Positions 10,891-56,138 of a DNA stretch of 64,000 nt are shown here, piece by piece (the first letter of the stretch is position 1; every line of letters starts with the position of its first letter). The DNA comes from Escherichia phage vB_EcoM_DE16. A program made the position numbers and the translations under genes. The stretch lies in the sequence record OP595145.1. One strand, written 5' to 3'. The notes beneath the pieces are model-generated. The model was not told where the DNA came from, made no database searches, and saw nothing but the letters and a program-made list of their open reading frames with translations.

Positions 10891-10897
10891 GTTTCCC

Positions 10898-36004: not shown

Positions 36005-36049
36005 TGAATGCTATCCTATCATAAAATGTTTAATATTGTCAAGCTTTAA

Positions 36050-36854: not shown

Positions 36855-36864
36855 TGTTTTCTCC

Positions 36865-37032: not shown

Positions 37033-37223
37033 TAATCTTCCTCCAGATCAATTTCATTATAACAATGTATACAGAAACCATCATTGTGCATATGTTGTTC
37101 ATAAGACATATCTTTACCACAAGACCAACAACGGATATCCCCATCGTCCCATTCACGTTCTTCTTCGCCTTCAAATTCATCTGGTAGGTAAGGCATACCA
37201 AAATAATCTAAATCGTAACTCAT
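37032..37223 (-). CDS. small zinc-ribbon protein
   Basis: Start re-assigned to internal ATG (MSYDL) preceded by AGGAGA; paired CxxC motifs (CWSCG ... CIHCY). Confidence 0.45.
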   Translation of the reverse strand: MSYDLDYFGMPYLPDEFEGEEEREWDDGDIRCWSCGKDMSYEQHMHNDGFCIHCYNEIDLEED

Positions 37224-37272
37224 ATCTTCTCCTATAAAGGGGCAGAAGCCCCTTATAAAACAATACGTTAGA

Positions 37273-39870
37273 TCAATGACAGGATGCCCAGGAATTACCC
37301 ACATCATATCCGGCAGTAAGCTGAACATTAAGATTGTAAAATTCTCCAGCCTTAGTAACAGCTAAGGCAGCAAGTTCACCTGCCCGACTATAGGCTGTAA
37401 ACCATCCACCTTTGGGAGATTCATGAATGTTAGCCCAAATTTGCCCTGTCTCTTTTTCCTTATTATGCTTCCATTCTTCGACTTTAGCAAGGCATTCTTT
37501 ATCAATTTTCTTTTGTTCTTCAGGATCGTCTACTTTCTTCCAACCTAATGATTCAGGTGAAAACCATTTGAATTCTACAAGGTTACGAGAAACTTCAAGC
37601 TGGGCTTCATCGTGGTATGCAATCATTTGTTGCACGAAGTCTTTATTCTTCCAATCATCTTTAAAGAAGTCAACACTTAGTCCTTCTTCTTCGATCATGT
37701 CGTCATAAATAACCATTGCACGTTTAGCACAGATAACCCCACCACTTTGGAACAGAGAGTTAAGAATCGCGTGAGCAGAACGAGTAGGAACCTTACGACC
37801 GTCAATACCCAAAACATATTGTTTACCAGTCTTAACCCAGAAATCGTTTAAACGTTCTTTAAGACGCGCCAATGGGAATGCAGCTTCCCAGAAAGCATCG
37901 AACACCAATTGACCTGTAAACTTATCGCTACCAATTGTTTTAGCAACCTTGTCGGCTTGTGCACCATAGGTAATACCATACTTAACAGATTTAGCAGGAC
38001 TACGTTCAAATTTACGTCCAATAGTTTCAGTGATACGTTTTGCCATCATTGTGTGAACATCATTAGGTTTCTCTAACAACAGGGCGTTACAATACTCGTG
38101 TGGCTCCGGCTCGTACCGCCAACAGTAGTGTGATTCAATTTTTGCTTCCAAAGAGTCGAAGTCGTAGCCGATCTGGAAGTATTTAGGAACCTCCACACCA
38201 AACAAGTTACGCATCTCCCATCCAAACAAAGATGTGACACGAGGAATATTAGCTACAGACCTATGCTTCATACGCGAGGTTGCAGCATCACATGTAGCGG
38301 CTGGGGTAGGAATACGCCCATCCGCCCTTACTGCGGCTAAGAAACCTTTATCGTATTCTTGATCTTCTTCATCTTCTTCCCAATCAGCACCGCCACCTAA
38401 AATAGAGTTCCTACGATGTTTATACGTTAAGTATTCTACAATCTGTGTAGCATAAGGGAATTTCTCACCCAAAGCTTGCAGGTTAGGACAGATTTCTTTT
38501 TCCTGACCTTTGGTAAAGCATGGGTTAGTCAATACTTTAAGACCGCGACCTTTACCTTTTGCTATACGCTCTTGAATCTTCCTTTCCAAAGTTTCCGGTG
38601 TGCACTCCAGATGATCACAACGATCCTGACAAAAATTAGAAGATAGAGTTTGCTCAACGTAAGCTCGAATACCTTTCTGAAGTTCTTCCTCGCTCTTTTT
38701 AATCTTGGTGCCAGATTTAAGAGTCAAGTCTTTATCTTTATATTCAGACGGTACCCAACCTAATCCTACAAGCCAGTTTTTAATATGGGTAGTATCGTTC
38801 AATGTTGCAGGGATGTTAGGATCACACAAAGGCTCATCTGCTGCAACTGGCAGTTTCCACTCTTTCCCCAACATCACTAACCACCAATCTCCATCCCTCT
38901 CTTCCAAATGACCATCATGTTTCTTAGCAAAATTGATCATATGGTTAGTTGGCTCTAAGTTCTTTTTAATTTGCAACTTAGGTGGAATAAAAGCCTTAAG
39001 ATAACCTTTTGTTGCTGGTTTAGGTGGCAAAATAGGCTCAACGAGTAAACGAAGACGCTCCATTTCTGCATCCAAAAAAGCAAGGTTCTCTTCTGCTTGC
39101 TTCATGTTAAAAGCAAACCCACGGTGTTCCTGGCGTGTAATAATGTCTGCTACACGTTGTTCAAGTTCAAATGGACCTTCCCATTTATCATAATCACCCC
39201 ATTCTTCCATAAGGTAATTATATACGCTCGTATTGGCTTTGTTGTCATAGATACAGTAATAAAGCATATCAGCAGCAAAAGTCTTAAATCGATCTTCTTC
39301 TGGAATCTCTTTACGGAAATCTATTTTTACATCACCCCCTGCCTTTCGAGAAAGTGCTGCCAAACTATGTCCTGATTTGCCTTCAATCTTTCGATCTGGG
39401 TTTAACACTTTACTCAAAATCAAGGAGTCAATAAGTTTTACCTTATTTTTGCCCCACGTATTATATTTAACACTGTAATCTAAGCCATAAAACAGTTTTG
39501 TAGCCAACCAGTCATAGTTGATACCGTTGTGAGCCACAGCCATTTCAACCAGATATTCAGGCTTATCTTTAAAATAACCTTCATGATTAATAAAGTCTGG
39601 GAAATCTTTTAGTTGAAAATGTGTGTAATCTTGCGCCACATACTCTTTAAGAACATATGTGTATTTACCATCTGACTCTTCATAAGGACGCCCATCAAAG
39701 ATGTATTTAGGGCCATCGTGGAAAGCTACTATTTCTCCTGTTTCATGGTTCTCTAAGACAATACAGTGCATTTGAAATGTGTCTTTGAGACGATAAGGAC
39801 TAGCTAAATAATCGATAGTGTCATTATTCAACAATCCGTTTGCTTCAATATCCCATGTAAACTTACTCAC
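37273..39870 (-). CDS. DNA polymerase, family A, with 3'-5' exonuclease domain
   Basis: 865 aa; exonuclease motif DIEANGL; motif B-like KSVKYGITYGAQ; motif C YHDE; GTG start after AAGGAGG. Confidence 0.85.
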   Translation of the reverse strand: MSKFTWDIEANGLLNNDTIDYLASPYRLKDTFQMHCIVLENHETGEIVAFHDGPKYIFDGRPYEESDGKYTYVLKEYVAQDYTHFQLKDFPDFINHEGYFKDKPEYLVEMAVAHNGINYDWLATKLFYGLDYSVKYNTWGKNKVKLIDSLILSKVLNPDRKIEGKSGHSLAALSRKAGGDVKIDFRKEIPEEDRFKTFAADMLYYCIYDNKANTSVYNYLMEEWGDYDKWEGPFELEQRVADIITRQEHRGFAFNMKQAEENLAFLDAEMERLRLLVEPILPPKPATKGYLKAFIPPKLQIKKNLEPTNHMINFAKKHDGHLEERDGDWWLVMLGKEWKLPVAADEPLCDPNIPATLNDTTHIKNWLVGLGWVPSEYKDKDLTLKSGTKIKKSEEELQKGIRAYVEQTLSSNFCQDRCDHLECTPETLERKIQERIAKGKGRGLKVLTNPCFTKGQEKEICPNLQALGEKFPYATQIVEYLTYKHRRNSILGGGADWEEDEEDQEYDKGFLAAVRADGRIPTPAATCDAATSRMKHRSVANIPRVTSLFGWEMRNLFGVEVPKYFQIGYDFDSLEAKIESHYCWRYEPEPHEYCNALLLEKPNDVHTMMAKRITETIGRKFERSPAKSVKYGITYGAQADKVAKTIGSDKFTGQLVFDAFWEAAFPLARLKERLNDFWVKTGKQYVLGIDGRKVPTRSAHAILNSLFQSGGVICAKRAMVIYDDMIEEEGLSVDFFKDDWKNKDFVQQMIAYHDEAQLEVSRNLVEFKWFSPESLGWKKVDDPEEQKKIDKECLAKVEEWKHNKEKETGQIWANIHESPKGGWFTAYSRAGELAALAVTKAGEFYNLNVQLTAGYDVGNSWASCH

Positions 39871-41105: not shown

Positions 41106-41138
41106 TTTTACTTCTCCTCTTGTTTGGTTGATGAGACA

Positions 41139-41167
41139 AGTATAAGTCCCTTCCGCAAAGTTGTCAA
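41139..41167 (-). promoter_or_regulatory. sigma70-like promoter, TTGACA-N17-TATACT
   Basis: Perfect -35, 17-nt spacer, TATACT -10, about 30 nt upstream of the 41105 start codon. Confidence 0.5.
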
Positions 41168-41171
41168 CAGG

Positions 41172-41195
41172 TATTTTTAATAAAAGGGCCGAAGC
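41172..41195 (-). terminator. hairpin terminator after primase-helicase gene
   Basis: GGGC-TTCG-GCCC stem-loop followed by TTTTATT on the minus strand. Confidence 0.5.
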
Positions 41196-41197
41196 CC

Positions 41198-42988: not shown

Positions 42989-43267
42989 TTAAAATGGTTC
43001 GTTAGTCTCCATCATATATTCTGCTTCTAGTTCTTCCATGTGCTTTCTAAATTGGAAAGCAATTTCTGCTACAGTTACATTTAAATCTTTTTCAAAAACT
43101 TCTGTAGAGCCTTCGTAAAAACGAATACCGTCAATTAAAAGCCCTCCGTGGTAATCCCAATCACTTTCACGAGAAAGCGGGTTAGGCTCTTCATAATAGT
43201 AATCCACCTCCACGACTAAGGCTTTCCCGTTACGAGTGGTGTATTCAAAATCAAAAGTGTTAATCAT
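42989..43267 (-). CDS. hypothetical protein
   Basis: 92 aa ORF. Confidence 0.4.
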   Translation of the reverse strand: MINTFDFEYTTRNGKALVVEVDYYYEEPNPLSRESDWDYHGGLLIDGIRFYEGSTEVFEKDLNVTVAEIAFQFRKHMEELEAEYMMETNEPF

Positions 43268-44211
43268 TATAGCTCCTCAAATAAAAGTCTACGACGCTCA
43301 TTCAACACATCAATGTGATAATGAGTCCTGACATACTTAGCTAATGCTAATCCTTTCTCCATGCAAACATCGGGAGCACTTAATAAGTATTCCGTAATAT
43401 CTTTCCACTCGGAAGGTGTTTCAGCAAAGAATAACAGATCTTTAAACTCTTGTGTATGATAATTCTCACGAGGAGAACAAATCAAAGGTAAACCCTTAGC
43501 ACCTGCCTCAAGAATTTTAAGATTGCTTTTTGCATTATTAAACACGTTATCAATCAATGGCGCAAGACTGACTTGATGACCATCGTAAGATTCCATGTAG
43601 TTGGCATATGGTCTTACACCTTCATAAACACAAGTTGGTGCTACATTTTCTCTGATTACAGACCATTCACGACTACTTAAAACTTCAGAATCCCTACGAA
43701 AACCACATATTGTAAGATCTTTACCAAAATCGGGCAAGATAGCCAAATCTTGTTTATGTGTTTCACTTCCAGCCCAGACTAATGGAGTTTTGGAGTAGCG
43801 ATCACGGGTCAACACAAATTGACCTTCATCGTAAGGAAGTCCATTAGGGATTATGTGCACATTATCATTGTATTGTGAAAGTTCAACTTGCAAGGCAGGT
43901 GTCGTAGTTGTAACAAGGTCACTGTGCTCTAAAAACCATTTTAAATGTTCACGAATACCTGATTCAAAAATACCTTCTAACATGTGTCCTTTTGGAATAA
44001 CTAAAGAGTCATCCAAATCCATAACCATTTTAAAGCCTAGGTTTTTAAGGGCTAAAAAGCCCTCTTTACCTTTTGTTGGCACTCCGTTAAAAACGAAAAC
44101 GTTGTGTTTAGGTTGTGAAGAGAACTGCCTTGAGTAAGGCAGCACTACCCTATGGAAATCGCAGACACTATAATTGATTCCGTTACGATTGTCAAGAATT
44201 ATTTGTCCCAT
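43267..44211 (-). CDS. glycosyltransferase-like protein (GT-B fold type), paralogue 1
   Basis: 314 aa; paralogous to the 44219 gene; C-terminal NAKSNLKILEAGAKGLPLICS resembles the GT-B donor-binding region. Confidence 0.4.
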   Translation of the reverse strand: MGQIILDNRNGINYSVCDFHRVVLPYSRQFSSQPKHNVFVFNGVPTKGKEGFLALKNLGFKMVMDLDDSLVIPKGHMLEGIFESGIREHLKWFLEHSDLVTTTTPALQVELSQYNDNVHIIPNGLPYDEGQFVLTRDRYSKTPLVWAGSETHKQDLAILPDFGKDLTICGFRRDSEVLSSREWSVIRENVAPTCVYEGVRPYANYMESYDGHQVSLAPLIDNVFNNAKSNLKILEAGAKGLPLICSPRENYHTQEFKDLLFFAETPSEWKDITEYLLSAPDVCMEKGLALAKYVRTHYHIDVLNERRRLLFEEL

Positions 44212-44218
44212 ACTTCAC

Positions 44219-45166
44219 CTACAAACTTTCAATAACCTGGCGTCGCAATTCGTTTGCATCTGCCAGATTATAATGTGTTCGAACATGTTCAGCCAAGAAC
44301 AAGCCACGATCTTCCCGATAGTTTGGATTGCGAAGAAGCTTAACAATTTCGTAATGCCATTCTGCTTTATTCTCTGCGTAAGCAACAGCACGAGCATCTA
44401 CAGGGTTAAAATAAGGTAACACCTTAGAACAAACAATCGGAATACCTTTTGCCCCAGCTTCCAGGATTTTGAGATTACTTTTGCAATTATTAAAATCATT
44501 ATCTACCAAAGGAGCTATAGCAATAGCATGACTTTCGTAAACACTCATGTAATTATCTAAATCTTTTACAGCAGCTTTATATTTAGCGTTTGGTAAATTT
44601 CTGCGAATCTTAATCCACTCTTGTCCCGTGATGCTCTGTGATGCTTCATATCCCGCAATAGTAAGAAGTTCATCATCGAAAGTATTAGAGACTAGTCGTA
44701 AGTCGGGTTCGTGACTAGCACCGCCAGCCCATACAACAGGGGTACCGGATGAACGATCATTTGACAAAGTGAATTGTCCACTATCAAAAGGAAGTGCATT
44801 TCGGATCACAACAACATTCCTATTTAAGTGACGGATCTTATATGCCAAGTATTCCGTAGTCACAATAACCACATCAGCAAGCTTAACCATAGCCACAATA
44901 GCATGAGTGTTTGACTCGTATAAACTTGCCAAATAATGCTCTGGATTAAGTTGGTAAAAATCATCTAAGTCTACAACAATCTTAACACCTTGACGTTTCA
45001 AAGATAAAACGTATTCTGCACCTTTAGAGTGGATACGGTTAAACACAACAACATCTTTCTTAGGTTGAATATTACTGTTGTTAAATGGTATAACAATACG
45101 ATGATAGTCACAACCGCTGTGAGGTTTTGCATCAATTTTTAGTTTAGACCATTTTTTATTTGACAT
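44219..45166 (-). CDS. glycosyltransferase-like protein (GT-B fold type), paralogue 2
   Basis: 315 aa; shares HRxVxP N-terminal and CKSNLKILEAGAKGIPIVCS C-terminal motifs with the 43267 gene. Confidence 0.4.
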   Translation of the reverse strand: MSNKKWSKLKIDAKPHSGCDYHRIVIPFNNSNIQPKKDVVVFNRIHSKGAEYVLSLKRQGVKIVVDLDDFYQLNPEHYLASLYESNTHAIVAMVKLADVVIVTTEYLAYKIRHLNRNVVVIRNALPFDSGQFTLSNDRSSGTPVVWAGGASHEPDLRLVSNTFDDELLTIAGYEASQSITGQEWIKIRRNLPNAKYKAAVKDLDNYMSVYESHAIAIAPLVDNDFNNCKSNLKILEAGAKGIPIVCSKVLPYFNPVDARAVAYAENKAEWHYEIVKLLRNPNYREDRGLFLAEHVRTHYNLADANELRRQVIESL

Positions 45167-45839
45167 GTGCTAGTGCCTCCTCATAGGAAATTCGGATTTT
45201 CCCATTTTTAATATCCTCTAAAGATGCTTTATATTCTTCCCAGTTAATCCCAATAGCAGCTTCTTTCTCTTCTTTTGTCAGGTTAGCAAAAGGCATAGGA
45301 TTGTTTCCAAAAACATCGTCTGGGTGGATATAAGCCATGATACGAAGTGGACAAGGTGTTGCCTGAATACCATGATTCAAACCAGCAGCTTGCAAACGGT
45401 GTCCCCATTCAGCATCTTCAAAACCATAACCGTGAGTGTAAGGACGGAAATAACCCATCTTCTCAACAACGGCACGAGAATACATTGCAAATTGACACAT
45501 TGCAAGTTCCCAGAGAATAACTTCTCCTTTGCTTCCAACAACTTTATCTTTGAAATACTCCGGCATACCAAAGAAATCCCATCCTCCAGAAACAGCCTGA
45601 TCTACAAAGTATGTTTCCCATCCTTCCATGACTGGGTAGCAATCATCGTCAAAAATAAACCAATAATCATAACCTTCTTCATAAAACTGGTGCATAAGTT
45701 CATTCCTGGCATAAGCTACACCTTTACGATCTGGATCGTTGAATACTCGAAAATCTGCACGTGGATCTGTTACAAGGTAGTCTTTAAGTGGACGGACACC
45801 TACAGTGATAACACCCACTCCGATTTTAATATTTTCCAT
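45156..45839 (-). CDS. glycosyltransferase-like protein (GT-A fold, DxD type)
   Basis: 227 aa; N-terminal beta-strand IGVGVITVG and FIFDDDC DxD-like motif. Confidence 0.4.
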   Translation of the reverse strand: MENIKIGVGVITVGVRPLKDYLVTDPRADFRVFNDPDRKGVAYARNELMHQFYEEGYDYWFIFDDDCYPVMEGWETYFVDQAVSGGWDFFGMPEYFKDKVVGSKGEVILWELAMCQFAMYSRAVVEKMGYFRPYTHGYGFEDAEWGHRLQAAGLNHGIQATPCPLRIMAYIHPDDVFGNNPMPFANLTKEEKEAAIGINWEEYKASLEDIKNGKIRISYEEALAHVK

Positions 45840-45847
45840 TATCTCTC

Positions 45848-46411
45848 CTAAATAGTTTTACTGTGATCGTGACAGTGTAATAAATGATGTATAGACCGTT
45901 GAGGATTTGTTTGACCTAATCTGTAAATGTGGAACAGATACATTCCCCGCATCAATCCTAACCTTTTTCCTTTTTCGTGTAAAGTGCGAGAGAAAATTAA
46001 GTCAAATTGAATAGATTTTTCTTCGAAAGGAATTTCATTCCATAGTGATTTCCTAAAAAGCAAAAAGAAACCTGCCAGAGGTGTTCCGAAAGGAACTTCT
46101 TCAACACTCACTTTATGATATTCTCTTGCAATCTTAGCATATTCTATATGGTTTAGAATATCTGGATCATCGTTAATTTGGTTAGAGAAAAGCTGATAAC
46201 CACTGCCTAACCTGTTACAAGTTGCACCTATTACATCAAAAGGCGGGTTTGACATAACAAGCTCTTCAAGCATAGATGGTTGATCAGGTAGGAGGAACAT
46301 TGTATCGGTATCTCTTAAACACACCCAACTATCATCTGGAAGAACGGCAATGGCTTCATTGATAGCCTTGCCGATATTTCCTGTCAGATAGGGAGTAATA
46401 TAATAAATCAT
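45848..46411 (-). CDS. hypothetical protein, possible small GT-A-like transferase
   Basis: 187 aa; RDTDTMF DxD-like motif; weak. Confidence 0.3.
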   Translation of the reverse strand: MIYYITPYLTGNIGKAINEAIAVLPDDSWVCLRDTDTMFLLPDQPSMLEELVMSNPPFDVIGATCNRLGSGYQLFSNQINDDPDILNHIEYAKIAREYHKVSVEEVPFGTPLAGFFLLFRKSLWNEIPFEEKSIQFDLIFSRTLHEKGKRLGLMRGMYLFHIYRLGQTNPQRSIHHLLHCHDHSKTI

Positions 46412-46427
46412 TCTCCCCTCCGTTATA

Positions 46428-46619
46428 TTAACTGTCGGCTACAATCCCACGTTTAATCATTTCTTGTTGAATCTGGATCACACGATCTCGTGCTTCCATA
46501 TATTCTTTAAAAGATTCTTGAAGATGGTCACGAGCTACGTCTCGTAGCTTAATCAGTTTGTCGTTTGTCACTTCTTGAAGAGAGATTTCGCCAGTTTCAT
46601 TGGTCCCAAGCGTTTTCAT
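46428..46619 (-). CDS. hypothetical small helical protein
   Basis: 63 aa ORF. Confidence 0.35.
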   Translation of the reverse strand: MKTLGTNETGEISLQEVTNDKLIKLRDVARDHLQESFKEYMEARDRVIQIQQEMIKRGIVADS

Positions 46620-46827
46620 TTACAACCTCCTTAATAGCTACTGCACAGTTCTTACAAATACATTGACCTTTGTTCTTAGAAATTTCAATGTAAGGTTCAT
46701 TTTCGTTTTCTCCGCGTCGTGAGTCGTATATTACTGTATTGAAGCAGACAACGCAAATGTTTTTAATAACGACATATTTTTGCACTTTCTGTTTAGTGCG
46801 AAAATTGACTTCAATGACTTCTCCCAT
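46597..46827 (-). CDS. small zinc-finger protein
   Basis: Start re-assigned to ATG (MGEVIE) preceded by GGGGAG; CVVC ... CICKNC motifs. Confidence 0.4.
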   Translation of the reverse strand: MGEVIEVNFRTKQKVQKYVVIKNICVVCFNTVIYDSRRGENENEPYIEISKNKGQCICKNCAVAIKEVVNENAWDQ

Positions 46828-47111
46828 CAGTGAATCTCCCCTAAAATGTTGTTTTGAGACATTACTGCGGAGCATTCTACAGCATCATGAGTCCTTGCAA
46901 AACGCTCCCACAACACAGCATCTACTTTAAGAACCATACAAGGATAAATACTGTCGTTGATCATGTCAATGCTATATTTATCTACATCCTTTTCATCTTC
47001 CATAAACAAAGTAGCGTATGCTTCTAAATGCTTACGGGTGTAGTATACATCCTCCTCGGTAAGACCGACAACCAGGTAACTTGCTACAACAACAGTATTA
47101 TCTTCTTGCAT
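46827..47111 (-). CDS. hypothetical protein
   Basis: Start re-assigned to ATG (MQEDN) preceded by AAGGGGAG; 94 aa. Confidence 0.4.
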   Translation of the reverse strand: MQEDNTVVVASYLVVGLTEEDVYYTRKHLEAYATLFMEDEKDVDKYSIDMINDSIYPCMVLKVDAVLWERFARTHDAVECSAVMSQNNILGEIH

Positions 47112-47112
47112 T

Positions 47113-47634
47113 TTAACTCCCCTTTGGTAGATAGAAACCATGCACTTTATCTCGATAAACAAGACGCATATCACGTTCCCAGTGTGTCCTTATATTCCGT
47201 TTCTTGAAGTATAGAGCACCTTTAGTAACATCTAAAACAGACCGCAATTCAGGAAAATGTTTCTCTAAATAAAGTAAACGCTCCGCTATTGCTTTTGCTT
47301 CCTGCCATTTATCTTTTTCTGTTACGTTAAAAGTTTTCGCATATGAGAATTGCCCTTTCTGGAACAAAACTCCTCTGACTGTGTTAGGGAAGTAGGTATC
47401 ATTTCTTCTGTTGATTACCACATTCCCAACGGCATTCATTCCTTTTTTACCCAGACCGCGACCTTCTGCGTAAATTGCACAAGCTAATAGAATTTTATCA
47501 TTATATTGCTTTGTACATTTGTGAACTACTTTAGCGGTTTTTACGTTTGCAGCTTCGGCTTTCGCCACAACAGGTGTAAATGTAAAAGCAGTTAAGGATA
47601 GTAACGCAACTGTTACAAAGTTTTTTATCAGCAA
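47113..47634 (-). CDS. secreted cell wall hydrolase, SleB / Hydrolase_2 family (possible endolysin)
   Basis: 173 aa; N-terminal signal peptide (LLSLTAFTFTPVVAKAEA); motifs YAEGRG, NVVINRR, FQKGQFS; TTG start after GGAGG. Confidence 0.6.
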   Translation of the reverse strand: MLIKNFVTVALLSLTAFTFTPVVAKAEAANVKTAKVVHKCTKQYNDKILLACAIYAEGRGLGKKGMNAVGNVVINRRNDTYFPNTVRGVLFQKGQFSYAKTFNVTEKDKWQEAKAIAERLLYLEKHFPELRSVLDVTKGALYFKKRNIRTHWERDMRLVYRDKVHGFYLPKGS

Positions 47635-47666
47635 ATTTTGCCTCCTTTTTAAGTTAACGAATTTCT

Positions 47667-47695
47667 AGTATAACACGATAGAGGCTTTATTGCAA
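47667..47695 (-). promoter_or_regulatory. sigma70-like promoter, TTGCAA-N17-TATACT, preceded by a GC hairpin
   Basis: Hexamers with 17-nt spacer upstream of the SleB-like gene; hairpin GAGGGGGA-TTTC-TCCCCCTC just upstream. Confidence 0.45.
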
Positions 47696-47733
47696 GAGGG
47701 GGATTTCTCCCCCTCAAAATCATTTGTTAATTA

Positions 47734-48336
47734 TTATGGACATTCATACCATTCTTTTTTACCACCGAAGGCCATCACCACATCACAAATATCCAGACCA
47801 GCTTTACCTACACCATATGCTTTCAGCTTCCATTCTCCATCTTCACGAACCAAGGAAGCCACGTGGCAGATTGTGTTGCCAGCTACTTCAGGAGCCAGGA
47901 AGTCAAAATCCAGAATTTCCACATTGCGCTCGGAGTCGAAGATTTTAAGCATACCTTCAGAAGCATGACCAAAACGTTTCAGACCTGTATCATCATCAAT
48001 GGTCAGAACAAAGGCAATCTCTTGTGCATCAGGAGAGATTTTAGCCAGAGTAATATCAATCTGCTCCATGCTGCCAGTTCCATCACGAACATCATCACCA
48101 GCGAAGGTAGAACGTTCAGGATCAAACTTGTTAGCATAGCAAACCAGATGACGTGCAGACAGCATTTCAGGATTGCCAGCGGCATTGTGACGACAAACCA
48201 GTGCACTTACATCCAGGTCCAGTTTAGAATCAGATTTCCAAGAGAATTCCAGGCGCAGTTCTTTCAGAGCCGGAGCAACTTTCTTCAGGGAAATTTTTTC
48301 GCTAGAGCCTTTTTTCAGGGAAATTTTATCAGTCAT
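47734..48336 (-). CDS. terD: TerD-domain protein
   Basis: 200 aa; tandem KISLKK strands at the N-terminus, LDLDVSAL motif, acidic GDDVRDGTG loop; closely follows the E. coli TerD N-terminal pattern. Confidence 0.7.
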   Translation of the reverse strand: MTDKISLKKGSSEKISLKKVAPALKELRLEFSWKSDSKLDLDVSALVCRHNAAGNPEMLSARHLVCYANKFDPERSTFAGDDVRDGTGSMEQIDITLAKISPDAQEIAFVLTIDDDTGLKRFGHASEGMLKIFDSERNVEILDFDFLAPEVAGNTICHVASLVREDGEWKLKAYGVGKAGLDICDVVMAFGGKKEWYECP

Positions 48337-48351
48337 CTTTTGTCTCCTCTA

Positions 48352-48621
48352 TTATTTAAGTGTAATACCAGTTACAGTCAATTCTACTTCCAAAAGCTTA
48401 GATGTGTTTTGGATTGATACTAATTGTGCATGATGGTTTAGTTCTACAGCAGAATAATCATTCTCCCCATCATCTACTTTTAAATAAACAATAACTTCAC
48501 TAAGGTCTAAACCATTTTCGTCAAATGCAGTTTCATAGACGAAAGTATCTCCTACATCCAAATCTTTAATGGTAAGGCATCGTTTATTTACTTTTTGCTC
48601 ATCAATTTCGAAGTTTAACAC
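48352..48621 (-). CDS. small TerD-adjacent protein, paralogue A
   Basis: 89 aa; paralogous to the 49643 gene (shared DLxxGxTF and GLD motifs and ITLK end). Confidence 0.45.
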   Translation of the reverse strand: MLNFEIDEQKVNKRCLTIKDLDVGDTFVYETAFDENGLDLSEVIVYLKVDDGENDYSAVELNHHAQLVSIQNTSKLLEVELTVTGITLK

Positions 48622-48850
48622 TTCTTCCTCCTAATGTTATCTCCGGTTTGTATATACGAAGAATTATAGCATTTTCATTTTCTTTGTCAACCCATTCTTC
48701 ATAATCGGGCCATACATGAATCTCTACTCTATTCGCAATATCTTCCATCCGCACAGTCCCAATGAAATACTCTTTGAGACTGCGCATAATGAAAGCTTCT
48801 CTCTCGCGCCAATAATTTTCTACGACTTGAGAGGCAAGCTCGTCGATCAT
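48602..48850 (-). CDS. hypothetical protein
   Basis: 82 aa ORF between the vWA and paralogue A genes. Confidence 0.35.
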   Translation of the reverse strand: MIDELASQVVENYWREREAFIMRSLKEYFIGTVRMEDIANRVEIHVWPDYEEWVDKENENAIILRIYKPEITLGGRSVKLRN

Positions 48851-49641
48851 TTTTTAGCACCTACTTTAACAACCCACTCTCCGAACTCTTCAGATAAGAG
48901 TTTGTCATAAAGCTCTGAATCTGTCAAGTCTAAATCTTTAATGCCAATAAAACCAACATTATCATAAGCATTTGCCAGTTCTTTCAGGAAGCCAAACTTC
49001 TCATTACCAACGCCAACCATGAACCAATAGATAGGCTTATTCTTATTTTCTTCAATAAGACGACGAACAGCACTAGGATCACCATTCTCACCATCTGTCT
49101 GGAAGAATACAACACCAGGGGTAACGTCAGCACCTGGTTCAGATACAGCTACAACCTTTTCACGCTCTACAGACACTGTTTCAGTTTTACCAAGCAGACG
49201 ATTAAAGAAGCCTTTCTTTGGAGCCTCCTCTTGTACCACTTGTTTAGTGGTAATATATTTGGTAACAGTGCCAAAATACTCATCGTAGATATCTGCCATT
49301 ACAGGGGCGTAATTTGTTCCACCTCCGATACGAACATTACGCATACATTTACCAACATAGTCATCGTAAACGTCTGCTGTTGCTGGAGTAAGCTCTTGAG
49401 AACTCGTATTGAAGGCCCACATGTCAATTTGTTCATTATCGTCGAACAGCATACCAAAAGGAAGCAGTTTACCTACAAAATCACTCACTACCCCACGAGC
49501 ATATAGACTATGCATACTACCAGAAATATCTAGAGCACATGCTACACGAAGAACAATCTTACCTTCATTCAGGTTCTTATTCTTTTTCAGAGAGAAAGCA
49601 AGGTTTTCTTGACGTTTTTTCAGGCTGATTTTCTCGGACAT
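48847..49641 (-). CDS. vWA-domain protein with TerD-like N-terminal strand (TerF-C-like / TerY-like)
   Basis: 264 aa; N-terminal KISLKK ... FSLKK; MIDAS motif DISGSM, downstream GGGTNYAPV. Confidence 0.6.
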   Translation of the reverse strand: MSEKISLKKRQENLAFSLKKNKNLNEGKIVLRVACALDISGSMHSLYARGVVSDFVGKLLPFGMLFDDNEQIDMWAFNTSSQELTPATADVYDDYVGKCMRNVRIGGGTNYAPVMADIYDEYFGTVTKYITTKQVVQEEAPKKGFFNRLLGKTETVSVEREKVVAVSEPGADVTPGVVFFQTDGENGDPSAVRRLIEENKNKPIYWFMVGVGNEKFGFLKELANAYDNVGFIGIKDLDLTDSELYDKLLSEEFGEWVVKVGAKK

Positions 49642-49642
49642 A

Positions 49643-49921
49643 TTATTTCTCCTTCTTAAGTGTAATGTTGGTAACTTCTAAATCTACTTCCACCATATTT
49701 GTATCTGGTGGGATACAATGAGTATAGCCTCGTTGTGCTAGTGATCCATTAATACAAATCGCACTGTTTGTGGAATTTTTAATGAACACCAAGTTACGGT
49801 AGGTATCCAACCCTGCGTCTTCATAGGCATCATAATACATGAATGTGGCCCCTATGCCAAGATCTTCGAAAGCAATAGGCAAATCCTGACACTTTTCTTC
49901 TTGAATATTGAATCTAAACAC
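49643..49921 (-). CDS. small vWA-adjacent protein, paralogue B
   Basis: Start re-assigned to GTG preceded by GAGGAGG; 92 aa; aligns with paralogue A over its full length. Confidence 0.45.
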   Translation of the reverse strand: MFRFNIQEEKCQDLPIAFEDLGIGATFMYYDAYEDAGLDTYRNLVFIKNSTNSAICINGSLAQRGYTHCIPPDTNMVEVDLEVTNITLKKEK

Positions 49922-50477
49922 GCATACCTCCTCTACCAATTTTGAAGCCCAAATCGTAAGCTTCCTTAGTGATCTTTTGTAACTCACTTATAGGAAGTGT
50001 TACAAGAGGATCATCTTCTTCAATTTCCATCTTGTCATCTTCTGTTTCAATGAGAGTATTATGCACTTTGTGATAAGGGTTGTCAACACGTTTAAACTTA
50101 TTCTTTTCTGTGCTGAAAAAACAATCTGGATCTTCTTCACCATCACCCCAACCTTGGTTAGGATCTCCGTCAGATTGTTCTGTAGGGATTTCACCTGTAA
50201 AGTACTCTTCCAGCACCATAGCAATACCGTCCCTTGGATTTGAGGAATGCATTAAATCACAAACCTTACCCCAATCCATAGCCCATTCGAACCGTTCACG
50301 AACGCCATTTTCATCCTCCTTTCCAGAGAAAACACAACCATAACTATCATAGTTGCCATACATCTCTTCAATAACAACACCATCCTTCAAAAGAAAGAGA
50401 TAACAAGGTGATCCGTCGAAAGAAGTAGAAAGGGCAGCTTTGCCAGATTCCTTACACAAAAAACTAAAACAACCCAT
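49914..50477 (-). CDS. hypothetical acidic protein
   Basis: 187 aa ORF. Confidence 0.4.
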   Translation of the reverse strand: MGCFSFLCKESGKAALSTSFDGSPCYLFLLKDGVVIEEMYGNYDSYGCVFSGKEDENGVRERFEWAMDWGKVCDLMHSSNPRDGIAMVLEEYFTGEIPTEQSDGDPNQGWGDGEEDPDCFFSTEKNKFKRVDNPYHKVHNTLIETEDDKMEIEEDDPLVTLPISELQKITKEAYDLGFKIGRGGMRV

Positions 50478-50680
50478 TACAAACCCTCCTTCAGATTATC
50501 AAGAGCTACAGTGGTTTCACAAAAGTCTCCATACGTTTTATGATGTTCCAGAAAAGCTTCGGGTCCACCCCAATCATTATCTTGTGTATTCCAGCCATCA
50601 ATAAAAGCATCTTCAATGATTGTGATCAGTTCTTGTCGGGTTAACTGGATAATATCAGGATCGTTATCGTAGTTAAACAT
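50477..50680 (-). CDS. hypothetical small protein
   Basis: 67 aa ORF. Confidence 0.35.
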   Translation of the reverse strand: MFNYDNDPDIIQLTRQELITIIEDAFIDGWNTQDNDWGGPEAFLEHHKTYGDFCETTVALDNLKEGL

Positions 50681-50846
50681 CTTCTTCCTCCTCTAAAATA
50701 TGAAACCCGTAATTACAATAGTCCTGAAATGTTTCGTGTGCAAGATCTTCTATATCCTCTTGAGACATATCATCTTCAATTTCGATATCCACAACCTCAT
50801 TGCATCCACACCAAGCAGTTTCAATATTCACTCGTAATATTTTCAT
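50673..50846 (-). CDS. hypothetical small acidic protein (57 aa, below ORF-track cutoff)
   Basis: ATG preceded by GGAGGAGGA, overlapping upstream stop (TAATG); found by manual translation. Confidence 0.3.
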   Translation of the reverse strand: MKILRVNIETAWCGCNEVVDIEIEDDMSQEDIEDLAHETFQDYCNYGFHILEEEEDV

Positions 50847-51043
50847 TATTCCTCCTCCTCGTTGAAGTCGATATCTGCAAGTAGTTGGAATTTACGGAAG
50901 TTACGACAACCTTCATAAATATAACAATCACGACAAACTGCTAGAACACTTGGGGGATATATGCCTCCCATCGGTGCGAATCGTTTTTCGTCATCATAAC
51001 GGACACCAATGTCTTCATCAATTATATAGATACGGATTCTCAT
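50846..51043 (-). CDS. hypothetical small cysteine-containing protein
   Basis: 65 aa; start overlaps TelA-like stop. Confidence 0.35.
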   Translation of the reverse strand: MRIRIYIIDEDIGVRYDDEKRFAPMGGIYPPSVLAVCRDCYIYEGCRNFRKFQLLADIDFNEEEE

Positions 51044-52152
51044 TTACCAAGCCCTCGTTTCACAGCAGCTACCATCCCGTCTTCCAGAGATTGAACTTCA
51101 TTAATATAATCAACACGAGCAGCACGGGCTTCCGTATTGATGCGGTTAGTTTCTTCCAACATCTTAACCAAGTTTTCCTGATCGTGACGCAGAGTTTCAA
51201 TATCCAACACTTGACGGTTAGCCAGTGCTGCTGCTTCGATCTGATTCTGTGTGGCAAGATCGCTACCCAGTTTAATTGCCAGGTTAAATTCGTCAAGAAC
51301 GTTATTCTGCGTCTCTGCTGCTTTCATTTGACGTAAGCTCTCGATATACATGGAGAAGTTAGCAGAGTAAGCAGGAATAACATTATTTACTATGTTACGC
51401 GCAGATCGCATTAAGCTTGCAGAAACTTTTTGCATACCTTGTACACGCGGTCCCATTTGGACACACAGTAGGCGCAATGCTTTTAAATCTGCAATACGAA
51501 TCTCCAGAAGATCCAAAGTATCTCGGATCACTTGTCGCTGTTCTACTGCATCTTCTGGAAGAGCAGCCAAAGCTTGTTCTTCTTTTTCATAGGTTGCTGT
51601 TAGAAGCTGCATATCTCGGTTCAAACTTGCAGCATATTGTCCAATAGCTTGATGTAGCTTTTCAAGATATACCAAGGAATCTTCTTCTTTGCGAATATCC
51701 ATTTGAAGGTTCTTTACCAACTCTTCAATACGGTTATTAACATTATCAAACTCCCCAAACAGGTCTTCTTTCATACCCATAACTTTTTTAATGAGTTTAG
51801 TAATACCCTTGCTTTGTTTAATAGAGTTTGGATCAAGTTGTTTTGCCTGTTTAATCAAAGCTGTGAGTCGTTCACTCATCTGATCACCTTGATTACTACG
51901 TTGATGTTTTAATACCTCGGCATTCAAGGAACGCAAGGTTGTTCCTGCCTCTGCCCCGATTTCTTCGATTTCTTGCCTGGTCATAGAAGGCAAAGCTGGT
52001 ACTTCTTGCGGTGCGGCTGGTGCATAAACAGGACTGGCATCTAACACGCTTGGAGCGAATACAGATTTACTGGCATCTGTTGTTGCAGCAAATACGCTCA
52101 TTTCAGGCTTCTTCTGACCACCAGTAGCTGCTTTTAAAAATGGACTTGTCAT
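51040..52152 (-). CDS. TelA-like (toxic anion resistance) protein, putative
   Basis: 370 aa, all-helical with A/P/S-rich N-terminus; assignment rests on size, helical character and Ter gene context, no sharp motif. Confidence 0.4.
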   Translation of the reverse strand: MTSPFLKAATGGQKKPEMSVFAATTDASKSVFAPSVLDASPVYAPAAPQEVPALPSMTRQEIEEIGAEAGTTLRSLNAEVLKHQRSNQGDQMSERLTALIKQAKQLDPNSIKQSKGITKLIKKVMGMKEDLFGEFDNVNNRIEELVKNLQMDIRKEEDSLVYLEKLHQAIGQYAASLNRDMQLLTATYEKEEQALAALPEDAVEQRQVIRDTLDLLEIRIADLKALRLLCVQMGPRVQGMQKVSASLMRSARNIVNNVIPAYSANFSMYIESLRQMKAAETQNNVLDEFNLAIKLGSDLATQNQIEAAALANRQVLDIETLRHDQENLVKMLEETNRINTEARAARVDYINEVQSLEDGMVAAVKRGLGK

Positions 52153-52739
52153 TCTTCATTCTCCTCTTCTGCATCTCTTATATATGGTGAAACACCGTAC
52201 TCTTTAGCTACTTTAACCCAATCGTCCCATTTATACAACCATAATTTTCCTTCTGTCCCTTCTTTATCTGATTTCAACCACATATTAGGTTGCTTACCTG
52301 GGTACATGCGATTAGGTTTACGATTATAACCTCTAACACATCTTGTCGCAAACCTATCTACCAGAACAAGAACATATTTATATTCGTGGTTCAACGGCTC
52401 TTTGGAAGTGGCTTTAGGATTAGCCCCTAATTCTGCTGCCAGTTTTTGCCAATGAGCACCGTGCCTACTAAACTTACCCATACAACCATCAATAGCATGA
52501 GCAATTTCGTGCTTCATTGTATCTACGATCATATCTCTTGTGGAGTTCTTATGCAAGTGCCAATTTACAACAACAATTTTATCTCGGTAGTTGCACCAAC
52601 CGAAAGAGTTATTCACTTTGTTTCTAACACAAGCTTTATATCCTGCTTCACGTAACATGTTGTAGTAAACAGGAAAATCTTCTTTTATTTCCTGCATCAC
52701 TTCCCACCACAAGAGTTGCAAGTCTCTCTCGGTATGCAT
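52149..52739 (-). CDS. SprT-like zinc metallopeptidase domain protein
   Basis: 196 aa; HEIAH (HExxH) motif. Confidence 0.4.
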   Translation of the reverse strand: MHTERDLQLLWWEVMQEIKEDFPVYYNMLREAGYKACVRNKVNNSFGWCNYRDKIVVVNWHLHKNSTRDMIVDTMKHEIAHAIDGCMGKFSRHGAHWQKLAAELGANPKATSKEPLNHEYKYVLVLVDRFATRCVRGYNRKPNRMYPGKQPNMWLKSDKEGTEGKLWLYKWDDWVKVAKEYGVSPYIRDAEEENEE

Positions 52740-52742
52740 AAC

Positions 52743-53336
52743 TTACACCTTAAAAGCGAAATGTGTGGTCGTGGCTTCAAAATCAGGGCCAGATAAACTT
52801 GCACTGAAATCTGAAATATTTGTAATTAAAAAGCTTTTATGCATACCTAACACAGCCACGCTTTCAATATCTTCTACTAACATTTCAATCATGTTAGAAA
52901 CATGGCTGAACGTATAGTTTTGTTTTTTGATGGTGTAGAAAGAAAGACTCCCACCTGCTGTATAAGATACCTCTTCAAAATCTTTAATCGTATATTGTGT
53001 GCCATCAGTAAAGAAAATGGTAGCTTTATTAGTAGCACGTTTCTTGTTTTTTGGTCCTTTTTTACGTTTACTGCGAGTAGGCAAACCATTTGGAAATACC
53101 GTAGCTACAAATTCTTCAGGAGAAACCTCCTTACCGAAATCATAACCGTAAGAAACAGCGTCTATAAACTCGTCGTCTTCATTTTTAAAATAATGAAAAT
53201 AGGGCCAATTTGAGAGATTATCGAGCATCTTGTGCTCATCCACAGCAGAGAACGTATCCCTCAAAGCACGTGTGATTTGCAAAGCATTAGGCAAACTTTT
53301 AACACCTGTAATGGAAGTACGAATAGAAATTGTCAT
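52743..53336 (-). CDS. hypothetical protein
   Basis: 197 aa; basic KRKKGPKNKKR patch. Confidence 0.4.
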   Translation of the reverse strand: MTISIRTSITGVKSLPNALQITRALRDTFSAVDEHKMLDNLSNWPYFHYFKNEDDEFIDAVSYGYDFGKEVSPEEFVATVFPNGLPTRSKRKKGPKNKKRATNKATIFFTDGTQYTIKDFEEVSYTAGGSLSFYTIKKQNYTFSHVSNMIEMLVEDIESVAVLGMHKSFLITNISDFSASLSGPDFEATTTHFAFKV

Positions 53337-53350
53337 TGTTTTTCTCCTTA

Positions 53351-53788
53351 TTAACGTCGCTTGCTACGAGATGAACTCTTTTTACTTAAAGGGCTATTGT
53401 AAGATTTACGAGTTGTATAGCTACTATTTGTTTTAAAAGTTTGTCTCGGCTTTTCATAAGTTTTTATCTCTTGTTTAGGCTTACCATAAAAATTAGTTTT
53501 CGGTTTAGGTGTATTATAATGCTTATTAATAATCGTTCTGTTATCGTTATAATCTCCACTGCTACGATTACTACCGCCACTCATCATATGCCCTAACAAC
53601 ATACCTGTAGCAAACTCACCAACACCGCTACTACTAGAACCGCCACCATTGTTGATAATAGTTGTATCTCCGTCAGATCCTTGTTGAGCGTATTGTTGAG
53701 GAGGTTGTTGGTATTGTGCAGGATTTGTTTCATCCTCGCAAGCTGTTAAAAAGATACAACCAATTAAAATCAGGGCTAGTTTTTTCAT
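53351..53788 (-). CDS. lipoprotein (signal peptidase II substrate), low-complexity
   Basis: Start re-assigned to ATG (MKKLALILIGCIFLTAC) after GAGGAAAG; lipobox LTAC; Q/G/S-rich mature region. Confidence 0.5.
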   Translation of the reverse strand: MKKLALILIGCIFLTACEDETNPAQYQQPPQQYAQQGSDGDTTIINNGGGSSSSGVGEFATGMLLGHMMSGGSNRSSGDYNDNRTIINKHYNTPKPKTNFYGKPKQEIKTYEKPRQTFKTNSSYTTRKSYNSPLSKKSSSRSKRR

Positions 53789-53877
53789 ATTTGCTTTCCT
53801 CGTTTTGGCTATTAATACATCTGTGTTTGAAATCTCCAGAGAAGCAATAAAGTTGCTCTCCATCTCGGTATAAACTC

Positions 53878-53906
53878 ACTTTACTGCCGTTGATTATGCT
53901 TGTCAA
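53878..53906 (-). promoter_or_regulatory. sigma70-like promoter, TTGACA-N17-TAAAGT
   Basis: Consensus -35 with 17-nt spacer upstream of the lipoprotein gene. Confidence 0.35.
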
Positions 53907-53971
53907 TACAAAAATTACAACAAACAACCCTATTGCAAAACAGATATTTTCAAACACAACCAACAAGTATT

Positions 53972-54322
53972 TCATTTTAAAAATACCTCATCATCAGTTT
54001 CATTATCCCAGAAGAACAAATCCCAACCACTTGGATCATTCCATTTGGCTGCTGGAGAAGTCCATATTTGCTCAATATCAATATTCAAAACTTCACCGTT
54101 TCGTTTTGAAACAGCTTTAGTTAATTCCCAACGGGATACAGGCTCCACTTCCCCTGAACCACTCCCACAACAAGCTACAACATTAGGAGGCAAATTAATT
54201 GGATCTTTGGTCACAATCATAACGCTTACCCCAGGGTAAACTTTTGAAAGATAATCTGAAATATAATCCACATCACCAGATAAATCCCAAACAAGTTCTT
54301 GAATTTCATCAAAATTATTCAT
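53972..54322 (-). CDS. hypothetical protein
   Basis: 116 aa; RBS GGAGG. Confidence 0.4.
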   Translation of the reverse strand: MNNFDEIQELVWDLSGDVDYISDYLSKVYPGVSVMIVTKDPINLPPNVVACCGSGSGEVEPVSRWELTKAVSKRNGEVLNIDIEQIWTSPAAKWNDPSGWDLFFWDNETDDEVFLK

Positions 54323-54364
54323 AAGTCTCTCCTATAAAATAGCCTCCCGAAGGAGGCTCATCTA

Positions 54365-55339
54365 TTAAACAGCAGCTTCTTCTTTTTCAGGGAAGATAAA
54401 GCTTGCAATAACACCAAGAGCTAATGTGCCTAGAACAATCATCAGACTTACGTTAGGGGAAATATCATGCGGGAGGAATGACCACTTGGCATGAAGTGTT
54501 TCACCGAACGGGTGATACATAAGTTTAGCACCAACAAACACCAGAACCACAGCAACAGCTTTCTCTAAGTGAACCAGATATTTCACAGCTACACTTAACA
54601 CAAAGAAAAGTGCACGTAAACCAAGAACAGCCATCAGCATTGCAGAATAAACTAGCAGAGGTTCTTGTGTCACCCCGATCACAGCCGGAACTGAATCAAA
54701 AGAGAAGACAATATCTGTAAGCTCAATAACAAACACACAAAGAAGAGCAGGAGTTGCATATTTAATACCATTCTTAATGGTAATGAACTTTTCACCATCT
54801 AGTGCATTGTGCACAGGCAGAACTTTACCTACTAAACGAACAGCCCAATGCTTAGAGTAATCAATATCCTCTTCTTCGTCACCACCTTTGATGATAGCCA
54901 CGGCAGACCAAGCTACAATCAAACCGAACAACACTTGGACCGACCAATGAAGGTTAAACAAAGCGGTCCCTGCTGCAACAAAAATACCTCGGAAGACAAT
55001 GGCTCCTGCAATCCCCCAAAGTAAAATCTTATGTTGGAGATGTGTGCTCTTAATTCCAAAGCTTGCAAAAATTGCCATGAACACCATCAGGTTATCTACA
55101 GAAAGACTCTTTTCCAACACATAACCACTTAGGAAAAGCGCGGCAAACTCTTTACCATGTTCTACCCAAATGAATGCGTAATATCCTAAAGCTAAAGCAA
55201 TCCAAAAAACAGACCAAAGCAAAGCAGATTTAATTCCAATTTCTTTATTCTCTTTATGACCAAAGAAATCGATACCAATAGACAATGCCAAAATACCAAC
55301 TAAAACAACTACATCAATAATTGGGAAACCGAGTTGCAT
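54365..55339 (-). CDS. terC: TerC-family integral membrane protein
   Basis: 324 aa, multiple TM helices; conserved YVLEKSLSVDN and FSFDSVPAV motifs. Confidence 0.7.
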   Translation of the reverse strand: MQLGFPIIDVVVLVGILALSIGIDFFGHKENKEIGIKSALLWSVFWIALALGYYAFIWVEHGKEFAALFLSGYVLEKSLSVDNLMVFMAIFASFGIKSTHLQHKILLWGIAGAIVFRGIFVAAGTALFNLHWSVQVLFGLIVAWSAVAIIKGGDEEEDIDYSKHWAVRLVGKVLPVHNALDGEKFITIKNGIKYATPALLCVFVIELTDIVFSFDSVPAVIGVTQEPLLVYSAMLMAVLGLRALFFVLSVAVKYLVHLEKAVAVVLVFVGAKLMYHPFGETLHAKWSFLPHDISPNVSLMIVLGTLALGVIASFIFPEKEEAAV

Positions 55340-55386
55340 TCTTTTCTCCTCTCTTTGCGGGGAACTATTCCCCGCTTCATGTGATA

Positions 55387-55414
55387 TATCTTACTCTTTT
55401 TAAGAACTATGTCA
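55387..55414 (-). promoter_or_regulatory. sigma70-like promoter, TTGACA-N16-TAAGAT, upstream of terC
   Basis: Hexamers with 16-nt spacer; followed by a 5'-UTR hairpin GCGGGGA/TCCCCGC and RBS GAGGAG. Confidence 0.4.
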
Positions 55415-55418
55415 ACAC

Positions 55419-55640
55419 TTATTTTGTTGAATGAGAGGAAAAGATTCCTCGTAATACCGCCAGAATAAACGAAACACAAACCACGGTCCAGAAGGTTACT
55501 GGGACAGTGATATCTGCATGACCCATAACTTCAGCAACATAGTTGTAAGCCAGCAACAGTAACCAAGCTGGAATCAAACTAAGCATAAAAGCAATAACAA
55601 AAAAGCTTACCACTGCAACAATACCTGCAAAAACACCCAT
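55419..55640 (-). CDS. small membrane protein (2 TM)
   Basis: 73 aa, two hydrophobic helices. Confidence 0.4.
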   Translation of the reverse strand: MGVFAGIVAVVSFFVIAFMLSLIPAWLLLLAYNYVAEVMGHADITVPVTFWTVVCVSFILAVLRGIFSSHSTK

Positions 55641-55652
55641 ACTAATCTCCTC

Positions 55653-56126: not shown

Positions 56127-56138
56127 TTTAGCTCCTTA

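Follow-up and report, generated by a model that had tools for sequence, protein, structure and literature searches.

The locus examined here raises the question of what a phage of Escherichia coli would do with a cell wall hydrolase that carries an export signal of its own and stands among accessory genes, that is, whether it serves as the endolysin or acts on the wall for another purpose. The gene lies in a 64,000-nucleotide stretch of Escherichia phage vB_EcoM_DE16 (OP595145.1; hereafter, the window), at 47113-47634, and the open reading frame and the motifs YAEGRG, NVVINRR and FQKGQFS, from which the original prediction derived a SleB-type enzyme, are present exactly as described. The gene is real and encodes a putative exported peptidoglycan-cutting enzyme, probably not the phage's only lysin but a second wall enzyme under tight control.

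By nucleotide comparison, the window is a Phapecoctavirus (Stephanstirmvirinae) sequence; a 3-kb query spanning the gene (window 46000-49000) was 98.6–99.1% identical to more than 60 phage records, and the SleB-like gene itself is 98–100% identical in more than 60 records. The closest complete genome is that of EF1-1 (~98–99% identical to the window where aligned), on which the window maps to 67,410-133,032 and whose SleB-like protein is 100% identical. The gene corresponds to phAPEC8 gp067, labelled 'putative cell wall hydrolase SleB' or 'endolysin', and is an orthologue of phi92 gp170; it is thus already known, having been annotated since 2012 with the phAPEC8-like coliphages. Both the gene and the signal peptide of a relative's homologue are already on record in the literature or GenBank, as is the presence of two lysins. 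The regulatory region, comprising a hairpin, a promoter, an anti-Shine-Dalgarno block and a TTG start, is newly described here, and parts of it we infer. As for the window at large, its collinearity with EF1-1 breaks at 20418-22092, 37235-37272 and ~38122, with a replaced segment in the tail-spike region, and it lacks ~0.6 kb found at EF1-1 104,958-105,571 (an annotated HNH endonuclease gene) and ~0.7 kb found at EF1-1 106,425-107,156, inside a gene annotated as DNA polymerase I. Near-identical or related genomes are also deposited under Acinetobacter, Campylobacter, Pseudomonas and 'Dompiswa', host attributions that look questionable for E. coli-type phages.

The gene and the parts of its product are arranged as follows.

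47113..47634, minus strand: SleB-like (Hydrolase_2) coding sequence, 173 aa, TTG start, TAA stop
47641..47646, minus strand: Shine-Dalgarno (SD) sequence AGGAGG, kept in six lineages
47551..47634, minus strand: Sec-type signal peptide, codons 1-28, assigned from rules, conservation and the AF2 model
47479..47517, minus strand: Cys pair HxC...LAC (Cys52 codon, 47479-47481; Cys40 codon, 47515-47517)
47464..47466, minus strand: GAA codon of catalytic Glu57, by alignment with SleB YGESRG; invariant in 97 sequences
47116..47523, minus strand: catalytic domain of SleB fold, residues 38-173, from profile matches and the AF2 model

The TTG codon lies 6 nt past the perfect SD sequence and is the sole workable start, because the next in-frame Met (residue 66) falls beyond the catalytic residue. 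The product is small and basic (precursor, 19.8 kDa; mature form, ~17 kDa; pI ~10), and its sole Pfam domain, Hydrolase_2 (PF07486; residues 62–168), was matched at 64.1 bits against a cutoff of 27 (E = 1.9e-17) over profile positions 3–100 of 100; it also matches PHROG 938, 'endolysin'. It further matches the solved structures 4F55 and 4FET, both SleB catalytic domains, in whose YGESRG motif the catalytic Glu aligns with Glu57 (YAEGRG) of the phage protein, and a profile built from 97 diverse relatives reached 4F55/4FET over the whole domain (E = 4.5e-24). Glu57 and Arg76 are the only invariant residues in this 97-sequence alignment, on which the AF2 model used here was built; a model from an 18-sequence alignment gave a pLDDT of 58 and was discarded. 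The profile matches and the AF2 model thus bear out the SleB catalytic-domain fold. With regard to sampling, a word-based homologue search recovered only the close phage clade (18 proteins), an exhaustive profile search recovered 17,198 family members, and a contig scan of genomes with the single SleB-like protein as query returned no bacterial relative.

The designation 'SleB-family' holds in the sense of Hydrolase_2 membership but not in that of SleB orthology, since the TIGR02869 equivalog scored 51.7 bits against a cutoff of 236.5. SleB proper is also contradicted by the lack of an N-terminal PG_binding domain and of a sporulation/YpeB context, the host being E. coli and the phage a virulent myovirus. 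Bacillus SleB (4F55, 4FET) is a germination-specific lytic transglycosylase, from which the phage protein further differs in its predicted export to a Gram-negative periplasm and in its substrate, which cannot be the muramic-delta-lactam cortex. Cys40 and Cys52 (HxC...LAC), invariant in the subfamily down to 30% identity, form a candidate periplasmic disulfide, and such a pair would fit an oxidised periplasmic protein.

The N-terminus runs MLIK (n-region), FVTVALLSLTAFTFTPVV and A-K-A-E-A-A, and has the parts of a Sec (type I) signal peptide, namely a positively charged n-region (K4), a hydrophobic h-region of ~18 residues (F6–V23) with Pro21 as helix breaker, and small residues at -3/-1. Overlapping small-x-small motifs provide candidate signal peptidase I (SPase I) sites after A24 (VVA↓K), A26 (AKA↓E) and A28 (AEA↓A); by homology to the P-V-x-A↓ motif of Vequintavirinae, the likeliest cut would be A24↓K25, with A26↓E27 and A28↓A29 as alternatives. 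Across 17 relatives (59–89% identity), no stretch varies more than the c-region, which has indels and 44% pairwise identity, yet the small residues at -3/-1 are retained, as would be expected of a real signal-peptidase site. The h-region shows 86% pairwise identity compared with 71% for the mature part, and relatives in other genera have unrelated h-regions of the same layout, often ending in ...P-V-x-A↓K/A.... The export signal is common to the Stephanstirmvirinae homologues and is found also in those of Vequintavirus, Seunavirus, Henunavirus, Mydovirus, Septuagintavirus, an Acinetobacter phage and T5-like phages, and an N-terminal hydrophobic segment is present in 136 of 150 wider-family representatives. 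In the AF2 model, residues 4–16 form a detached helix followed by a lower-confidence linker (residues 17–37). The Sec-type signal of the original prediction is therefore supported by rule-based features as well as by conservation, the two grounds on which it was assigned here.

A lipoprotein signal (SPase II) was rejected, there being no lipobox L-[AS]-[GA]-C and no Cys before residue 40. In the literature, a signal peptide has been predicted for the homologue of Pectobacterium phage CB7 (PMC7344957), and for near-identical phages the proteins were stated to have no signal peptides detected (PMC10698182). Some deposited coding sequences are truncated at this end: that of Klebsiella phage NDO71 (L012, 1345-1728) starts at an internal ATG and omits the signal peptide, the full frame running from a GTG upstream, and that of Acinetobacter phage ABPH49 (L014, 1372-1623) likewise starts at an internal ATG and lacks the signal peptide, the full frame running from an upstream ATG. 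Many Vequintavirinae-type homologues carry an extra Cys inside the h-region, besides the invariant Cys pair near the catalytic Glu, which recalls how P1 Lyz is controlled by thiol isomerisation; the window protein lacks this extra Cys.

The gene was originally placed inside a Ter-like block, whose members and nearest downstream neighbour are as follows.

47734..48336, minus strand: terD (PF02342, by Pfam), upstream neighbour and last gene of the Ter block
48847-49641, minus strand: vWA-TerF-like
51040-52152, minus strand: TelA
52149-52739, minus strand: SprT-like
54365-55339, minus strand: TerC
55653-56126, minus strand: Macro
56139-56966, minus strand: ComF-like PRTase
56959-57633, minus strand: HAD-like, a weak match below the Pfam cutoff
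46827..47111, minus strand: downstream gene, 94 aa, PHROG 16257, no TMD, ATG 1 nt past the SleB-like stop

The SleB-like gene was found at the 3' edge of this block rather than inside it, past the sole sizeable intergenic gap (99 nt) in ~10 kb and separated from terD by a hairpin and a sigma-70-type promoter, both conserved. It opens the next unit, which continues with three small genes and then four glycosyltransferases, and it falls in the leftward replication/accessory block, so that its position among accessory genes and away from a holin had been read correctly; nor does a spanin adjoin it. The order of terD, gap and SleB-like gene is kept in six divergent Stephanstirmvirinae-type genomes; because rII genes are the neighbours in Vequintavirinae, the Ter linkage is specific to the Stephanstirmvirinae lineage. 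In Pfam and PHROG searches, the three downstream genes encode soluble proteins of no known family, and a holin among them was rejected, since none has a TMD. Thus, the linkage to holin and spanin genes that is typical of an endolysin is absent, the neighbours being terD and three soluble proteins. The Ter-type block itself is a full one (47734-57633, minus strand) and resembles bacterial Ter-dependent stress-response gene neighbourhoods. The four glycosyltransferase genes, past the SleB-like gene and the three small ORFs, occupy 43267-46411 (minus strand) in the same direction, and dTDP-rhamnose pathway genes lie elsewhere in relatives (EF1-1 35468-38746, outside the window).

Between terD and the SleB-like gene, the following elements were recognised.

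47696..47715, minus strand: GC-rich hairpin GAGGGGGA-GAAA-TCCCCCTC, between terD, which it follows directly, and the -35 element, which it abuts
47667..47695, minus strand: sigma-70-type promoter (-35 TTGCAA, 47690-47695; 17-nt spacer; TG-extended -10 TATACT, 47667-47672)
47680-47685, minus strand: anti-SD block GCCTCT, in the spacer (47673-47689), complementary to the SD as GGAGGC

The regulatory comparison comprised the window and five divergent relatives of 60–75% protein identity (six loci), and the hairpin and promoter were accepted only after comparison across these six lineages. The hairpin follows terD in all six loci, its base changes being compensatory and its loop mostly GAAA; it was missed by the terminator scan because its T-run is short, and it carries a rho-independent terminator annotation in phage ASO2A. 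Immediately after it, every locus has TTGC[A/C]A, a 17-nt spacer and a TG-extended TAnAnT, followed by a leader of 23–25 nt with the AGGAGG SD. The promoter scan gave 35 promoter-like hexamers against 21.9 expected, which is not above chance in AT-rich DNA, where such hexamers are common, and hence the promoter call rests on conservation and not on the scan. The anti-SD block reads GCCTCT in five loci and CCTCC in the other (L015), and is missing from two other hairpin-plus-promoter regions in the window. The TTG start is likewise common to all six loci, compared with 7 of the 118 annotated starts of EF1-1. On folding of the read-through RNA from terD, the unpaired probability of the SD was 0.00–0.12 in all six, and on folding of the promoter-initiated RNA it was 0.08–0.54; moreover, the palindromic -35 sequence TTGCAA can pair with TTGC of the start codon region.

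Constraint at the nucleotide level extends into the coding sequence. In pooled 10-codon bins of the six genomes, the identical-codon fraction was ~0.72 over codons 1–50 (~47485-47634) and ~0.44 downstream, and within codons 1–50 the stretch CTATCCTTAACTGCTTTTACATTTACACCTGT is nearly invariant. Because synonymous change is suppressed there, the conservation of the signal-peptide region is largely nucleotide-level; the suppression could stem from recombination, from codon choice suited to Sec targeting or from mRNA structure, an internal TCCTT being able to pair with the SD. We infer from these elements that the upstream design may keep the output of the SleB-like gene low and independent of upstream transcription, which would suit a dangerous exported enzyme. 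Similar elements occur elsewhere in the window: the hairpin GAGGGGGA...TCCCCCTC is present in two intergenic regions on opposite strands (~29806-29822, plus, and 47696-47715, minus); a hairpin followed by TTGACA-17-TAnAnT with TG stands also at 10861-10986 (plus) and 41106-41197 (minus); the order is reversed at 55340-55418 (minus), with the promoter first and the hairpin in the leader; and a sigma-70 sequence that agrees with the consensus at all 12 positions (TTGACA-16-TATAAT with TG) lies at 48663-48690 (minus), inside ORF 48602-48850 and upstream of ORF 48352-48621.

Whether the protein is the only lysin depends on what else the genome encodes. Pfam scans of 30 window proteins, including the tape measure and baseplate, revealed no other peptidoglycan hydrolase in the window, in agreement with the original prediction. 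Outside the window range, EF1-1 encodes gp90, a free-standing 166-aa T4-type lysozyme (PF00959; no TMD) with the Glu/Asp/Thr triad of T4 lysozyme intact, and an Rz/Rz1-type spanin pair directly upstream of terL; the spanins (63.4–64.1 kb) lie ~52 kb from the SleB-like gene (116.1–116.7 kb), and no homologue of this lysozyme or of the spanins was found in the window. Because the top PHROG of the T4-type protein is tail lysozyme, its role as endolysin is likewise putative. Two lytic proteins have been reported for Phapecoctavirus (PMC10793346). A hydropathy scan of EF1-1 gave several small two-TMD proteins, with no convincing holin beside either lysin. The only holin-like candidates are small two-TMD proteins at window 55419-55640 (minus strand), beside terC, and a pair at EF1-1 51524-51897, beside DNA ligase; none of them adjoins either lysin. 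Hence, of the lysis partners to be located, the spanins were placed beside terL in EF1-1 and a holin was placed next to neither enzyme. The suggestion that the SleB-like protein could be the endolysin is weakened by the T4-type lysozyme and Rz/Rz1 but falls short of being refuted, because a holin adjoins neither lysin.

Homologues were detected by tblastn in 1093 phage records, with identities of 60–100% in Stephanstirmvirinae, ~35% in Vequintavirinae and ~37% over the domain in T5-like Demerecviridae, and also in Pakpunavirus and some jumbo phages. In the lineages compared, the genes sit among early/middle DNA-metabolism genes and in no case in a lysis cassette: the neighbours are rIIA/rIIB in Vequintavirus, Seunavirus and Henunavirus, the early region in T5-likes, and DNA ligase in Pakpunavirus. 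According to the literature, every lineage for which reports were found has a different, additional endolysin, that is, an M15 or lysozyme-like enzyme in Certrevirus, an M15C enzyme in Septuagintavirus, a GH19 or lysozyme-like enzyme in Vequintavirus, PVP-SE1gp146 in Seunavirus and a holin-adjacent M15 enzyme in T5-likes. The literature search found no direct experiment on this protein or any family member; the CB7 homologue (CB7_83) was stated to be toxic when expressed in E. coli, as data not shown by its authors, and is not among the 26 virion proteins identified (PMC7344957). A virion-associated lysin was rejected on the basis of the export signal and of the absence of homologues from the virion proteomes of CB7 and PA5oct.

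The same gene is present in phAPEC8 (gp067), phi92 (gp170) and other Phapecoctavirus and Justusliebigvirus phages (75% identical in the latter), with the same synteny of terD, ~90-nt gap, SleB-like gene, three small genes and glycosyltransferases and no difference of substance, the annotations being computational. The Vequintavirinae proteins (CB7_83, CR3_087 and rV5-/PVP-SE1-type) share the size, signal peptide, HxC...LAC pair and catalytic Glu at ~35% identity, often with a non-ATG start and an upstream hairpin as here, each in a phage that also has a different canonical endolysin; a TTG or GTG start was found in 5 of 8 rV5-type genera examined. Their genes differ in preceding rIIA/rIIB, from which a two-TMD holin-like gene often separates them, such a gene directly following the SleB-like gene in Certrevirus, Seunavirus and Henunavirus. 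Furthermore, the hairpin in most Vequintavirinae genera examined, as in Pakpunavirus, has a T-run and stands just before the SD; in Vequintavirinae it is a terminator that leaves no room for the promoter seen here. The T5-like (Demerecviridae) 'second endolysin' shares the signal peptide, the single Hydrolase_2 domain and a location in the early region far from the holin/M15 pair, and differs in its ATG start, its other Cys pattern and the lack of an upstream hairpin.

On these grounds, we propose that the SleB-like protein is a second murein hydrolase of the lytic-transglycosylase type, exported by Sec independently of a holin, and put the chance that this proposal is right in full at about even. 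The gene would be driven by its own sigma-70-type promoter and translated from the weak TTG codon, with its output kept low and separate from upstream transcription. The precursor would leave the cytoplasm through the Sec pathway, and cleavage by signal peptidase I would free the enzyme in the periplasm, where the SleB-type domain, with Glu57 as general acid, would cut glycan strands of the host sacculus, its chemistry most likely being that of a lytic transglycosylase. Needing no holin for export, the enzyme would supplement the cytoplasmic T4-type lysozyme and the Rz/Rz1 spanins, and would weaken the wall or help its dissolution rather than act as sole endolysin. Bacillus SleB needs muramic-delta-lactam, which E. 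coli murein does not contain, and activity on ordinary peptidoglycan is therefore an assumption of the proposal. An active muralytic enzyme free in the periplasm would be expected to kill the cell unless its amount or its activity were curbed, by a mechanism that is here putative. Holin-independent Sec export with restraint needed until lysis is known for Lys44 of Oenococcus phage fOg44, which has a cleavable signal peptide, and for the SAR endolysins P1 Lyz and R21; these enzymes have other folds and lie in lysis cassettes, the host of Lys44 is Gram-positive, and SAR domains remain uncleaved.

Instead of contributing to lysis, the protein might remodel periplasmic murein early or midway in infection, loosening the sacculus for enlargement, changing the envelope against superinfection or releasing muropeptides, an alternative that we consider unlikely though worth serious attention. 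It draws on the placement among DNA-metabolism or early genes in Stephanstirmvirinae, Vequintavirinae, T5-likes and Pakpunavirus, on the adjoining genes linked to membrane integrity (rIIA/rIIB in Vequintavirinae; terD/telA/terC here) and on the host-type promoter with features suggesting low expression; E. coli also tolerates its own periplasmic lytic transglycosylases. Map position, however, is no guide to timing: early regions also contain T4 gene e and the T5 holin and lysin genes, structural genes in the window are likewise preceded by sigma-70-like promoters, and a literature search that covered transcriptomes of Vequintavirinae phages found no transcript data. Any specific non-lytic role is conjectural. 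In a broader form, which we advance tentatively and regard as rather doubtful, the homologues of Stephanstirmvirinae, Vequintavirinae, T5-like Demerecviridae and possibly Pakpunavirus would constitute a non-endolysin class of Sec-secreted murein-remodelling enzymes in large virulent Gram-negative phages, made before lysis for a separate periplasmic task and decoupled from read-through by the terminator hairpin, the promoter with its anti-SD spacer, the TTG start and the nucleotide-constrained 5' coding region.

It is improbable, in our estimate, that the SleB-like protein is the principal endolysin, secreted by Sec and set free to act once the membrane is depolarised by a (pin)holin, in which case the T4-type lysozyme would have another role, for example in entry. 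The SleB-like protein is indeed the lysin conserved across Stephanstirmvirinae and Vequintavirinae, the second lysin being swapped between genera, and the holin-like gene that follows it in three genera, the toxicity of the CB7 homologue, the database label of endolysin and the tail-lysozyme PHROG of the T4-type protein all agree with such a role. Against these stand the three downstream genes of the window, which offer neither a TMD nor a known family, and the T5-likes, which carry a homologue although their holin-adjacent M15 enzyme is the recognised lysis enzyme. The T4-type protein, free-standing, of 166 aa and with an intact triad, has the usual format of an endolysin, and the non-SleB lysin of a related rV5-like phage is enzymatically active (PMC9728275).

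Least probable, and in our judgement very much so, is an uncleaved SAR-type signal anchor that would tether the enzyme inactive in the inner membrane until depolarisation, as in P1 Lyz and R21 (a matter of topology that is compatible with the other readings): the fairly Thr/Ser/Ala-rich h-region (G/A/S/T, 8 of 19 residues), its unusual conservation, the N-terminal TMD of the Pakpunavirus homologue, which lacks an obvious cleavage site, and the additional N-terminal Cys of several Vequintavirinae homologues speak for it, but the small -3/-1 residues survive the c-region indels, Pro at -4 is a hallmark of a cleaved signal, the conserved cleavage-type motifs come after the segment, classic SAR domains have a higher G/A/S/T content, and the h-region conservation, being largely nucleotide-level, need not reflect protein function.

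The gene call as such adds nothing, the gene having been deposited and named since the phAPEC8 genome publication. What the comparison brings out is that many large virulent phages of Gram-negative bacteria have an exported SleB-type hydrolase together with a conventional endolysin, a combination that poses a small puzzle; the two-lysin question has been stated explicitly in a paper on T5-like Salmonella phages. If the protein is active on ordinary Gram-negative peptidoglycan and exports itself, it would be a candidate enzybiotic scaffold and would offer a Gram-negative case of a signal-peptide lysin that needs restraint. The arrangement of hairpin, promoter, anti-SD block and TTG start provides a concrete, testable model of how a phage may set a safe dose of a dangerous periplasmic enzyme.
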